Positions 27,101 through 36,100 of a stretch of 64,000 nt of DNA are shown here, piece after piece. Position numbers: made by a program. Every line of letters begins with the position of its first letter. Position 1 is the first letter of the stretch. The DNA is from Escherichia coli (GTDB lineage Bacteria > Pseudomonadota > Gammaproteobacteria > Enterobacterales > Enterobacteriaceae), in the NCBI RefSeq assembly GCF_045037415.1, contig NZ_CP173438.1; one strand, given 5' to 3'.

Positions 27101-30100
27101 GGCTGCGGCGAGAAAACGCCAAAATGTAGTAGTGATGATGCAAAAAATCTGGTCGGGGATATTGCAAGAAAGACAATCGAGAAAGGGATGAAACTGGATA
27201 AGGATGTGCGTATTTCTGTAGAAAATGTCAGAACAATTAGCCATGAATCAGATCTGGATGTTTATCAGTGCGCTGCTGATTTAACGTTTACAAAACCAGA
27301 TTTGCAAAATTCTCTACCAATCACCTACCGGATTCAGAAAACTGATGAGGGTAAAGGTCCGTTTTATATAAACGTAACAGGTTTATAATCACTGAATAAC
27401 ATCCGGGTTCCTTTTGGGTGAAATAATTCATGTTTTATTCCAAAAGGAAACCCTATGAAAAAGATCATCATATTTACCATTATAGCTATTATCACATTTA
27501 GTTGGCTCGTTACACACAATACAACTGAGTCCGAAAAAATCCCTCCTGCTAATACTCCCTTTATTATTAAGTCTAACGTACCTGGCATGTGCAAGGTCAG
27601 CGCCATCACAACCTCTACAGATACCAAACAGAATATACCTGTCGTAGCGTGCAAAATCAGCATTACGACCGCAATCACTTCCAGTACTACCAGTTACTGA
27701 TCACTGTGTTTACTTTACCGACAGACTGGGATACAAAAACGTCAAACACCTTCTCAATCAGTCTTATACCGTAAGCAATGCCGGGTGTGTCGGGCTCTGA
27801 GGGTTGATTAATTCCACAGGCATATGAAGACTAAATCCTACCATCCCCATACCTGCTGAGCCGCTCCGTTGAACATCTTTATCGCCTTGCTGTGGGTGCC
27901 AATCACGGCTATCCCCGCCCGTCTTGTAGGTTGGGGCTCACCAAATACGATGCCACTGGGAAGCTCTTTCAGTGTCACGTAATGCCATTTATAGCCCAGA
28001 TATGACCTGCTACTGAGCTAACTACATTGATTTGCCTAAATCCTGGGGCCTCTAAAGCGTCAGCGCCGCGCAGCAGTATAGGCAAGCCACTTTTAACGGG
28101 TTTTATCCGGCTCCCTGAGGCTGCTTTCAGAAAAGGCGTGTAATCGGATAACTACAGCAACCTAGGGAAGTATGTGCTTGTAGAATGAATGCAGTGGTAA
28201 TCAAGACTACCGCTTTTACAAACCCCACCAATCGTATAACTGCGATTTGATGGCTACCCATCCTAAGTTACTTCATTAAAATAGCACTATTTTTTGAGGG
28301 CAGCGGGATAAGGGCTCTGCGCTCTCCATCCATTGCATGTTCACCCGCAAACCATTCGTAATGAACTTTATTCATGATTGATACCGGCGGTTCTTTATTC
28401 TCTATAACTATGATTTGTAAGGTATCAGGCAATTGGGTCAGTGAATGCCAGAAGCCTTCCTCAATACCAGCCGATATGGGTTCATCGAAGCCCGATACCG
28501 TAGCAGCGGCTTTCTTCTTATAACTTGTCAGCGGTGAATCAATCACGACTAGCCCAGGATGCGGGTATCCTTTTTTAATACAATATTTTAGTAATCCAAT
28601 GATGAAAGCTGAATAAAGAATGGCACGAACACCTTTACCGTGAGACTGCCGAGGTTGTCCATCAACAATGATGTCATACTCTTTTTCATTAAATGAAACG
28701 TCAGGCTCGGCACCCCATTTCCAGTCTTTTAAAACAGTTTCAATTTCTCTACAAAGTTCGGCCAGCGTACGGGTAGATAATCCCTCCCATTCGAGCCGTG
28801 GTTGACTGCTCTTTTCCAGCAGTATTTCTATATCCTTTTGATGTTTTAGTAACTCAAACCATCTCTGTCGATCATTCAACTCAGAGTCTCTTTCAGCTCG
28901 CTGCTCAATAGCTAAATCTAGGCTTTCTTTGGAAAGTGTAAGAAGAGGCTCAAAAGTATATTTGATCTGGTTCTTCATTCCATCCAAGCTTTCTTTTGAC
29001 TTATATCTGTCTATATTCAGAGCTTCTTTTCTTCGGTCAAGATCACTCATCGCTTTTTGCAGGCCTGCAAGGTATCCATGAATTTTTGCAGCTTCAGCTA
29101 AAGAAGAACGTCGGACTTCATTACTGTTCATTAATTTTTTAGCGTTCTCACTGTGTGGATGTAGTAAATTTTGTCCACAAAGGGAACAAGGAACTTCCTG
29201 AAGTGAAGTGAAATAGTGAGAACCTTCGGAAATAAAATCCAACCGCTTCAGGTCGGAATGGTAACGTTCTTCTAATAGGCTATATCTCGATTGAATTTCA
29301 GATACTCCCATTAACTGAGATTCTATTTTTAACGTTAACGCTGTCTCCATTTTTATTCCCTCGAGCAAGTCAGAAATAGCGGCTGCAGCCCTCTCAACTT
29401 CATCAATTGCTTGTGCAATCAATTGATCTGATAAATCATCTGCTGAGCTCGTTAATGGAAACTTGGGCGAACAAATTGAGAAACGTTCATCAAGTGGTCG
29501 AATCAAATCCTGGATGAATTCAAGCTTCGCCATCAACCTCGCTTTTACAATTTCAGGCTTTTCCTCTACGGTAACACCACCATCATCGTGCCCGGTAAGG
29601 ATGTATGAAAACATGCGTTTTCGAGCAGTGTCGTCATAACCGGAACGTCCCGTTACTGGCGAGTATTCGTCGATAATGGATACTTCATCTACCAAAAATA
29701 TAGGAGCGAGCGTTCGAATCGAGAAACGTTGCGTTTCGCCACGAGCATTCTTGCGAAGCTTCGCCTCTTTGATCCCCGCAAAAGGGAAAAGTATGGACGT
29801 CACATCTGGCCCCTTACTCGTTCCTTTACGCACAGGAGCAATTATTTTACCTTCTCCATGGATGTCTTGAATAGCGACATCATGTGCCTCTAATTTCCCC
29901 CCCTCAAGACCGCGCTTGAGCGTTAACACCCCCCCTTCATCATTTTCGAATTCAACATAAAGATGGGTGTAATCGGTGGCCTCTTTAAGCTTTTTTTTGA
30001 GTTTTTCGGCACCAAGAATGTAGTCAAGACAACTCACAAGGTAACTTTTCCCAGTATCAGATTCCCCTGCTAGAATATTCGCACCCTTATAGAAATCAAC

Positions 30101-33100: not shown

Positions 33101-36100
33101 AATTTCTTCTACCAATATCTTACCTGGTTCGTTTTCTTTCTCATTAGAAACTAATGCATCAGGGATGTTTTTTTTGTTTGTTGAAAACGTAATGTCATCT
33201 GCATAGCGGCTGTAACTACAACCATATGTGACTGCTAGCTTTGATAATCTGAAATCTAAAATCCTACAAATAAGATTAGTTATTACTGGAGAACAAGGGC
33301 TTCCTTGCGGAAGCGATCCATCCAGGCAGGCTATCTGCGCAATAATGGTTGCAACATTTGGATGTAACTTGAAATTTTGGTTTGCAATAAAATATCCTCG
33401 CACGCGACCAAAATTAAAGGATGGGAAGAAATTCTCAATATCAATATTAAATACAATATTTTTATCTCGATGCCTCTCAGCATTTGTAATTATAGTTTTA
33501 TTCTTCTCAAAACCATGTGATACATTTTGTTTAATATTATTTTTTGCCCAAATTTCTTCCTGGCATATATATAGAAGTTCAGAAAGTCGTTGTTGAATAT
33601 CTTTCAGTTTTTCATCAGGAGCAAAGATCTCCCGCTCTCCTCCAGACTTTTTCTTTATAGTAAATTTTTTGTATTGATTTTCTGGCCTTATTCTATACAA
33701 AACATTAGTCAGAAATGTAACTTTAATCTGAAGCAAATCAGCCAGTTCAAATTTGTTACAACAAGCCTGCAGCCTTGCCAGATAGGTAGGTTTAAACATA
33801 ACAGTAAATTCCATTATTGATTATGTTAATGCACATGCAGGTACTCTTACGCATTTAACGGTGACGCCAAGATGACTTGACGGCAGTCAGAGGGCGAATA
33901 CTCCCGACCTTGTTAACACTGATTGCGATACCACAACCAACAAATCTACCTGCATGTGCCGTATTAAATTAGCATAGTCATCATATAACTCAAGCCCCCA
34001 ATCAATTTTTTTCAAAATCCTCAATAAGTTATAGATGGTTTGCGTTCTGTTCATTTCTGGCATCAGAGTGATGATTAGGCAAGTTAGCTGGGAAAATTTA
34101 TCCGGAGTATATACAAAGAAAGTAGTCAGCCCAGTTGAATCATCTAAACAAGACCAATTAACTAATTTATTTAAATGAAAAATAATGCTTTTGAGCTAAC
34201 CAATTATGCACTTAAGCTAAATTTACCGTTTTTGGGGCTAGCCCAACATCGAGGGCGCATAAGCTTTAGCCCACTTTTACTTTCCTGTTTTCTTTAGTAA
34301 CAGAAGGTTAACTATCAAATATTTTTGTTGGGCTATGTGGGCTAACAGTTTTCATATTTACGTGTTTTTTTATTCTTCTCCGGTTTCCGTTTCAGATACC
34401 GGAGTAAACAACAGCGTATAAGCCCAGGGACGTGCATGCTTGAGGTGTCTCAGCCGTGGCATACGTATCAGCCATCCCTCCACGCTGGTGGACTTTTTGA
34501 GCATTCCAGCCTCATGAAGGATTCTGCCGGCAGTATCCTTGCTGAGAGGAGTAGAACCTACGCCCTTCGCATTACGAATGCGAGCTAACTCCAAAATGAG
34601 TACGAACATGAGTACAAAAAAAATATATCATTAAATGTAGTATAAATTTCAATCAGATACAGCAAAAATTACAATTCAACGTCTAATTCCGCTAATACTA
34701 CTCTGGCGGTTAATAACGAGCCATTATGTGAGTTGCACGTAATGGCTTTTTTACGCCTGCTACGCGTCTTCTTTCAATTCTGAGTTACCAAAACTCATAA
34801 TCAGACTCCTGACAATATTAACAATGCAGCTTTTATGTGATAACAATCACAGTGCATTAACCGTTCAAGAGTTTGTCATGAAAAAAACATTTACCTTCAG
34901 CCTGTTAGCAATTGTCTTTGCAAGCCTGTTGAGTGCTTGTGTTCCCCACCATCATCACCGCCACAGCGATGGCCCTCGTGGTCCTGCGCCCTCCGGTAAG
35001 CCAATGCCACCTTCAAATGGTGGACCAAATCACGGCAGTCATGGTCGCTATTAATTAGTAATTCATAGCGGGAAAGTACATACTCTCCCGCTATCCACGG
35101 CGCTTAAACTGCCCTGCATCAATGCCATGTTGCTTCATTTTCCGCCACAGCGTAGTGCGGCCGATTCCAAGTAAAGCCGACATTTCCTGAATGCGACCGC
35201 CTGTGACTTGGGCTGCGTTAATAATTGCCTCTTTTTCAACTTCCGCAAATGACAGACTGGTGGAAAGGCGGGTGGCGCTGACATCATCTGTCGCCTGCTC
35301 GGTAAACAGATGTTCCGGCAAATCACTGACGCGAATGCGCCCATTATCACTACTCAGAGCAAGATTCTCGATGACGCTGTAAAGTTCAAAATCGTTGCCA
35401 GGCCATGCACAGGAAACCAGGCGAGCGAGGGCATCGTCATCAATTTTCAGCCGCGTAGAGAAGCGTTTTTCAAGGCTGCGTAATTTGTTATTCACCAGCG
35501 CCGGAATGCTGCCACGCCGCATACGCAGTGGCGGGATGGTAATTTCAAATGCATGCAGCGCGTAATACAGCTGGCGACTAAAACGATTTTGTTCCACCAG
35601 CATTGCGAGGTCCGCGGTCGTTGTGGCAATCACTTTGACATCAATGGGTATTAAACGCCGCGCATCCAGTCGCGTGATAACACCCTGCTTGATAACCTGA
35701 AGCAAAGCAGACTGTAACTCCACCGCCAGATATTCAATCTTTTCAAGAAACAGCGTGCCGCCGTGCGCCAGTTCCAGCCGACTCAGACGGCCATTTTCAT
35801 TATCCGTGCGATCGCCACCAATAAATTCTTCCGCCAGCGCCGCATCACCATATAACTCACAATTGACGGCGATATAAGGCCCCGCTGCACGCTCGCTTTC
35901 ATTATGAATTGCCTGACTTAGCAGTGCCTTGCCCACGCCCTCTTCTCCACAAAGCAGGACAGGAAAGCTACTGCGCGCCGCCTGGCGACCAAAATGAATC
36001 AAGCGGCGGGTTTGCGGATCGTCCTGTGGCATATGAGCGAAGGTATGGCTGACTTTTCCTAATTGACTGGTCATTAACTGCCGCATCTGTTCCACAGGAT

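Follow-up and report, generated by a model that had tools for sequence, protein, structure and literature searches.

A Lamassu operon and an RT-Toprim retron in the cargo slot of the ychF island of Escherichia coli ST131

The closest described relatives of the genes studied here are the Lamassu operon of Escherichia coli SE15, tested by Millman et al. (2022, bioRxiv 10.1101/2022.05.11.491447), and Retron-Eco2, for which production of multicopy single-stranded DNA (msDNA) and a phage defence dependent on both the reverse transcriptase (RT) and the Toprim domain have been shown (PMC12916289). In this work, we compare these systems with part of a 64,000-nucleotide stretch of an E. coli chromosome of the sequence type 131 (ST131) kind (assembly GCF_045037415.1, contig NZ_CP173438.1; hereafter the window, to which all positions refer unless stated otherwise), where an original prediction had placed a compact defence islet at 28268-34617, consisting of an RT gene and a three-gene ATPase/nuclease operon. 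We consider it very likely that the ychF island of E. coli ST131 carries two independent, self-contained abortive-infection systems, which fill the cargo slot at its right end. The direct basis of this reading is family membership, intact motifs, identity to SE15, the start of a tested clone, a covarying RNA stem, the borders of the island and the swapping of its cargo. Both systems, as well as the hotspot, are already known, and the islet is real but ordinary.

Four of the six Lamassu-family systems tested by Millman et al. (2022, bioRxiv 10.1101/2022.05.11.491447) defended under their native promoters, and the ATPase, the effector and lmuC were each required for defence. The SE15 system protected E. 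coli MG1655 against phage with the growth pattern of abortive infection, in which the culture is protected at low multiplicity of infection and collapses at high multiplicity. Their supplement records the clone, SG108, as 'Lamassu-Fam, v, E. coli O150:H5 SE15, Mrr nuclease LmuA', 3876 bp long and marked as defending. The three-gene operon of the window is likewise a short, type II Lamassu (an ABC-3C system) with an Mrr nuclease effector, in the order lmuA-lmuC-lmuB.

28268-30154, minus strand: lmuB, SMC/Rad50-like ABC ATPase of 628 amino acids (aa); full-length PADLOC LmuB match, 2.8e-176; identical to SE15 WP_000944508.1
30156-30671, minus strand: lmuC, ABC-3C middle component 2, 171 aa; Pfam MC2 5.9e-54, PADLOC LmuC 4.3e-57; identical to SE15 WP_001293316.1
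30668-31783, minus strand: lmuA, effector, 371 aa; PADLOC LmuA 1.4e-105, Pfam CTD6 2.4e-34 (C-terminal)
28167-32042, minus strand: extent of the SG108 Lamassu clone, placed by its first 399 nt and its published length of 3876 bp

All four islet proteins, that is, the three Lamassu proteins and the retron RT described below, are identical to those of SE15, an ST131 commensal of serotype O150:H5. The SE15 island as a whole is 99.97-100% identical to the present one (99.97% over 26 kb), the sole difference being a 2.26-kb group II intron insert. SG108 and the islet were compared over the first 399 nt of the clone and its stated length. Those 399 nt match 32042-31644 exactly, with the right end of the clone falling on the RT stop codon, and from this start and the length of 3876 bp it follows that the clone spans 28167-32042. 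Over the parts compared, no difference from the SE15 Lamassu-Mrr system is detectable, and its three proteins in RefSeq are the same. Judged by this sequence identity and by the clone start, the Lamassu of the islet is an already known and validated system.

The short class of Lamassu has an LmuB of about 600 aa with a Walker A motif Gx4GK[ST] and a Walker B motif hhhhD[QSTE] (PMC12663957). LmuB of the islet carries GESDTGKS (residues 30-37) and LVVIDS (535-540) at these two motifs and a single CxxC zinc hook (323-326), and the system agrees with the short class of that study in LmuB size, Walker B, CxxC hook and Mrr effector. The small middle component is encoded by lmuC, between lmuA and lmuB, with overlapping gene ends. 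LmuA joins an N-terminal effector domain, an Mrr-type nuclease with a D...QxK motif (GRDIVV...YQCK), to the conserved C-terminal domain. The same lmuA-lmuC-lmuB short layout, with an LmuB of about 600 aa, is found in V. cholerae DdmABC / Lamassu Vc-Cap4 and in E. coli Ec-Lipase; the zinc hook is shared with Ec-Lipase, whereas Vc-Cap4 is devoid of it, and the effector is an Mrr-type nuclease here instead of Cap4 or a lipase (PMC12663957). By analogy with the solved Lamassu complexes, a dimer of LmuB, as an SMC/Rad50-like ATPase with a zinc hook, would hold LmuA as an inactive monomer together with LmuC. Upon meeting phage DNA ends or replication intermediates, the complex would release LmuA, which would oligomerise, and the activated nuclease would then degrade DNA, resulting in the death of the infected cell. 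We infer this course of events from the Vibrio Cap4 Lamassu.

Type I-C retrons act as single-gene systems (PMC12916289), and their Toprim domain has an EGxxD motif IV and a motif V of either DxD (I-C1 and I-C3) or DxE (I-C2) (PMC7736814). The RT gene of the islet encodes a protein of this type, an RT-Toprim fusion of the Ec67/Eco2 family.

32042-33799, minus strand: retron RT-Toprim fusion, 585 aa; NCBIfam retron_Ec67_fus 702 bits (cut-off 450), PADLOC RT-Toprim_I-C 5.3e-214
33831-33959, minus strand: msr-msd RNA gene, 129 nt, directly upstream of the RT and bounded by the perfect 13-nt inverted repeat a1/a2
32020-33978, minus strand: retron cassette by homology, with 72.5% DNA identity to its nearest relatives, two IMG/VR contigs

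The fusion protein matches the Retron Ec67 structure (PDB 9i2f) with E = 4.2e-188 and is 50.5% identical to Eco2 (54% in the RT part and 45% in the Toprim part). Its catalytic residues are YADD at 199-202, E372/D376 (EGKTD) and D458/D460 (DND), so that the Toprim motifs EGxxD and DxD fit subtypes I-C1 or I-C3. The YADD and the four Toprim acidic residues mutated in inactive Eco2 variants (PMC12916289) are all kept. Retron-Eco2 (Ec67, I-C1; PDB 9i2f / 9lm3; PMC12916289, PMC12405507) has the same RT-Toprim fusion, of the same length, with the same YADD positions and the same EGxxD and DxD motifs. The resemblance extends to the RNA, which is of equal overall length, nearly identical in the 5' part of msr (AGATTTGTTGGTTGTG...) and has a G at the equivalent of position 15. 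The two retrons differ in the sequence of the msd stem-loop and in their location, since that of the islet lies on an integrase island at ychF and Eco2 in a P2-like prophage. We found no paper in the literature searched that names the accession of the islet retron protein.

The candidate msr of the original prediction was borne out by the inverted repeat, whose arms a1 (33947-33959) and a2 (33831-33843) bound the 129-nt RNA gene, with a G directly after a1. The RNA folds with a minimum free energy of -49.9 kcal/mol (z = -3.6), and Rfam has no model for it. We compared six loci of the Ec67 family: that of the islet, three on IMG/VR contigs and two from P2 prophages in other E. coli. Compensatory changes preserve the a1/a2 pairing in all six, even in L017, where the stem has a wholly different sequence, and each shows AGATTT(G/T)TTG after a1. 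The branching G of Eco2 is G15 (PMC12916289), and by this numbering the branching G of the islet retron is predicted to be 33946; by the same analogy, the msd template would cover approximately 33844-33909. The RT would thus use the msd portion as the template for msDNA with its branch point at G 33946. If the retron works as Eco2 does, the msDNA would scaffold a trimer and cage the fused Toprim nuclease until a phage nuclease (DenB in T-even phages) destroys it; the freed Toprim would then cut tRNAs, and translation would stop. The mechanism, the msDNA production and the triggers are all carried over from Eco2, and with 50% identity and a different msd the ST131 retron might sense another phage trigger.

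Some points weigh against taking both modules as working abortive-infection systems of the kinds described. In the literature searched there is no published test of the islet retron itself, and with an identity to Eco2 of only 50.5% and a distinct msd sequence, both its trigger and its target may differ. For Lamassu, the mechanism is borrowed from systems with other effectors (Cap4 and lipase), no solved structure in the PDB matches LmuA or LmuB at the sequence level, and the match of LmuA to Pfam Mrr_cat alone is weak (E = 0.0021). Moreover, a promoter scan revealed no convincing sigma-70 site upstream of either msr or lmuA.

The arrangement of the four genes raises the question of whether they form one system or two. 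The retron and the Lamassu are adjacent and on the same strand, the 258-bp spacer between them showed only a weak terminator-like hairpin in our scan, and essentially every one of the ~505 genomes with one of them has the other as well. Such a pattern would be expected from a single coupled system, in which msDNA or its decay products feed LmuB as a sensor of DNA ends, or in which the genes are co-transcribed or co-regulated. We regard coupling as very improbable, given the single-gene nature of type I-C retrons and the fact that SG108 leaves out the retron, yet it was recorded as defending. Other E. coli retrons of the Ec67 family lie alone in a P2 prophage hotspot, without Lamassu. Furthermore, the GC content is 33% in the retron versus 43% in the Lamassu, and retron homology stops at 32020, short of the Lamassu region. 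Co-occurrence is explained by clonal descent, with at least 99% identity within one lineage. The clone that excludes the retron, the lone P2 retrons, the difference in GC content and the homology border therefore argue for two separate cassettes.

The spacers on either side of the retron had been proposed as promoter regions, namely a 234-bp gap between the two systems (31808-32041) and a 400-bp AT-rich leader upstream of the candidate msr.

31784-32041, minus strand: retron-Lamassu spacer, 258 bp by the RefSeq start codons; probably holds the Lamassu promoter
33979-34546, no strand assigned: AT-rich spacer from the retron to the conserved end of the island; searches for genes, RNA families and homologues found none
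31853-32020, minus strand: unannotated open reading frame (ORF) of 55 aa in the retron-Lamassu spacer, inside SG108; weak helix-turn-helix (HTH)-like N-terminus, phrog_57 7e-5

Because SG108 starts at the RT stop codon (32042) and the tested operons used their native promoters, a working Lamassu promoter very probably lies at or below 32042, that is, within or below the 258-bp spacer. The proposal for the gap, with its length corrected, is thus supported indirectly, and the two promoter proposals together only in part. The leader is AT-rich as described (GC content of 34.5% over 33958-34369). Homology to the nearest retron relatives ends at 33978, 19 bp upstream of a1, which places the 400-bp leader outside the conserved retron cassette. 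In addition, the scan for the sigma-70 consensus showed no enrichment, with 17 promoter-like sites versus 19.7 +/- 4.5 in shuffled sequence.

We searched the spacers 27392-28267, 31784-32041 and 33979-34546 for hidden genes and RNAs. Nothing rose above noise in PHROGs, PADLOC, NCBIfam and Pfam, and Rfam gave no match at E <= 1. Comparisons by tblastx and tblastn with all the compared loci and with the island integrase matched only the conserved right end. There is a weak similarity between the N-terminus of the 55-aa ORF and terminase small subunits at their HTH end (phrog_57). As a Lamassu regulator or conserved gene, this ORF was rejected, since its only homologues among 5.8 billion proteins are near-identical E. 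coli sequences and the terminase small subunit found beside a related retron does not resemble it. The ORF is more probably the remains of a gene than a regulator.

The islet differs in base composition from the rest of the window, as had been predicted. The GC content of 28268-34617 is 39.8%, compared with 51.3 +/- 1.0% (minimum 48.8%) in 6.35-kb windows of core sequence from the same 64-kb stretch. In the RT gene the overall value is 33.0% and that at third codon positions (GC3) is 26.9%; in the three Lamassu genes the corresponding values are 42-44% and 36-39%, and GC3 in the core genes ychF, dhaR and dhaK is 52-54%. The predicted gene arrangement was likewise upheld. Four adjoining ORFs (28268-30175, 30156-30683, 30668-31807 and 32042-33814) follow one another in the same direction on the minus strand, and the island is bounded just to their right by one of two copies of a 12-bp attachment (att) repeat.

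27392-34546, no strand assigned: variable cargo slot; flanked by homology to the LR-62-2 island, up to 27391 and again from 34548
6360-34686, no strand assigned: genomic island, 28.3 kb, inserted at the 3' end of ychF; defined by the empty-site junction of E2348/69
6348-6359, plus strand: left copy of the att core repeat, TTCAACGTCTAA, comprising the last ychF codons with the stop codon
34675-34686, plus strand: right copy of the att core repeat, TTCAACGTCTAA, at the right island boundary
6574-7749, plus strand: P4-type integrase at the left end of the island; NCBIfam PRK09692 1.7e-80
8547-10806, strand not stated: group II intron insert, 2.26 kb, in the left part of the island; missing from SE15
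34547-34600, minus strand: decayed tRNA-Thr(CGU)-like remnant in the conserved right end; local alignment to tRNA-Thr, positions 10-63

E. coli E2348/69 has an empty site, where the flanks (6359 and 34675) meet exactly at a single copy of the repeat with an overlap of 12 bp, and on this basis the island was delimited as 6360-34686. It has the attributes of an integrase island: direct repeats flank it, one end holds an integrase, the cargo varies and the site is empty elsewhere. The islet as first drawn (28268-34617) contains the genes, but the segment that is swapped is 27392-34546, which starts about 880 bp to the left of 28268. At the right edge, a 79-aa ORF (34370-34609, 50% GC) was rejected as a gene, since it has no family match and overlaps the tRNA-Thr remnant, which explains its GC content. 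ARAGORN calls no intact tRNA at the remnant. The reference used in its alignment is one that we take to be tRNA-Thr(CGU), ARAGORN confirming tRNA-Thr only.

Two inverted repeats lie near the slot borders: a hairpin with 18-nt arms directly after a gene for a 111-aa protein on the left (27400-27457) and a palindrome with 23-nt arms just before the border on the right (34511-34546). Neither is conserved in the sister island described below, and they are more likely terminators or products of chance than recombination sites.

The islet is present at an identity of at least 99% in approximately 505 of 5,426 complete E. coli genomes (~9%), far from universal conservation. The suggestion that cargo is exchanged at this locus held. 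Besides the empty site of E2348/69, 89 other genomes have a sister island (of the LR-62-2 type) with a 94% identical backbone and different cargo in the same slot. This cargo (positions 7351-20019 of locus L009) includes a 1727-aa NACHT/Avs-like protein with weak PADLOC matches to Avs4 and PDC-M54A, a 1343-aa protein with an N-terminal HTH like that of control proteins, and a DEAD/DEAH helicase that is PbeA-like (1.5e-19). It is a candidate defence system, although it matches no complete PADLOC system.

The clustering of defence systems in a hotspot on a mobile element, expected from the outset, is supported by the PADLOC and NCBIfam matches, by the variable slot and by an earlier survey. In a table entry of Hochhauser et al. 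(2023, PMC10121019), the ychF-ycgV site is E. coli defence-island hotspot #22, with 99 of 1231 genomes occupied. This is the same chromosomal site, and the count is close to the 9-11% occupancy found here. The table entry gives flanking genes and counts; the internal layout, with the slot between a module of 175-, 119- and 111-aa proteins and the tRNA-Thr remnant, comes from the present analysis. As for other defence systems on the island, the only PADLOC match was the RT of the group II intron, a paralogue that is not a defence protein.

An insertion sequence (IS) interrupts one of the islet genes in a few genomes, with ISEc52 in lmuB (29148-29155) in about 4 of 506 and IS1 in the retron RT (33109-33118) in 2 of 510. 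Together with the flanks, which contain junk-like spacers and the tRNA remnant, these cases might mean that ST131 no longer expresses one or both systems, which would then be relics in decay. We find this the least probable of the alternatives considered. Reading frames and catalytic motifs are intact, 99% or more of the carriers have no interruption at the two tested sites, and the clone of the identical Lamassu, which includes the native upstream region, is active. The targeted junction searches showed IS disruption to be rare, and the idea that it is a common state was discarded. Other insertions were also seen: some ST131 genomes have ISEc23 in the spacer to the left of lmuB (27963-27970), and about 15 further genomes have ISEc52 or IS1 elsewhere in 27500-35200.

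An island of ST131 that holds both a Lamassu and a retron is already noted in a 2026 preprint, where transposon insertions in it altered gut-colonisation fitness in the presence of microbiota; the authors suggest that disrupted abortive-infection systems may be mildly toxic. Over-expressed Lamassu systems are toxic (PMC12663957). The genes could accordingly be seen as mainly addiction or stabilising modules of the island, or as gut-fitness factors, rather than as phage defence in the natural host. This possibility appears slightly more remote than the coupling of the two systems, as the SE15 Lamassu does protect E. coli MG1655 against phage and toxicity upon disruption is compatible with a defence role.

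With two self-contained defence systems as the preferred reading, the islet adds nothing new in kind, since the Lamassu has been tested, the mechanism of the retron family solved and the site catalogued. ST131 is a pandemic multidrug-resistant lineage, and phage defences fixed in it bear on phage therapy and on the uptake of plasmids and phages. What the analysis offers of use is an exact placement of the island, its cargo slot, the RNA gene of the retron and the branching G predicted for it.

The rest of the island allows some remarks on its origin. On the side of the slot, the backbone contains an AlpA-like HTH gene, a XerC-like recombinase, RadC, DUF2787, a second HTH gene and the three-gene module for the 175-, 119- and 111-aa proteins (26121-27388, plus strand), which adjoins the slot. 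These three proteins have no significant domain or family match, the 111-aa one showing only weak N-terminal matches. Counterparts of the 175-aa protein with 64-99% identity occur in Serratia, Pantoea, Salmonella, Aeromonas, Pseudomonas, Yersinia, Geobacter and Nitrosomonas, and such identity from Enterobacteria to Geobacter and Nitrosomonas may point to an important function. Its Geobacter homologue lies off this island type, beside HicAB and housekeeping-like genes. No match to the 175-aa protein was found in viral contigs, and therefore the island is not catalogued as viral.

Related islands in Serratia (L021), Salmonella (L022), E. coli (L023) and Aeromonas (L018) share a backbone of AlpA, XerC-like recombinase (missing from L023), RadC, DUF2787, an HTH gene and the 175-aa protein. 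The cargo differs among these islands, being a PP2C with a Ser/Thr kinase and an AAA_15/21 ATPase, IS elements with metal-efflux genes, or small ORFs only. Three of the four (Serratia, Salmonella and E. coli) have a P4-type integrase beside mutS directly after the cargo, and the Aeromonas copy abuts ychF in the opposite orientation. In the LR-62-2 island, the tRNA remnant (L009 20463-20529) reaches the CCA end and lies beside an integrase pseudogene fragment. Because related islands have a P4-type integrase right after the slot and LR-62-2 retains an integrase fragment there, the ychF island looks composite. The tRNA remnant suggests the same, and also that the right-hand module was once part of a tRNA-targeting P4-type island. 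A broader proposal makes two separate claims: that the backbone represents an undescribed, widespread family of integrative islands with a cargo slot by the integrase/att end, and that the ST131 retron responds to a trigger different from that of Eco2. This proposal seems to us rather unlikely.

E. coli K-12 has no island and contains ycgV instead at the ychF-dhaR locus. There, 91 bp past the ychF stop codon are approximately 90% identical to the left end of the island (6360-6450; 8061-8149 in the K-12 locus), and they include a hairpin resembling a ychF terminator. K-12 has no second att core. There are hints in the K-12 ychF-ycgV layout that a remnant of an old island is kept.

Within the group II intron insert, the RT ORF occupies 9203-10297 and the Rfam Intron_gpII match 10729-10815. 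Far from the islet, at 63149-63227 on the minus strand, the window also contains the small RNA C0299 (Rfam, 111.9 bits), an ordinary feature of the core genome.

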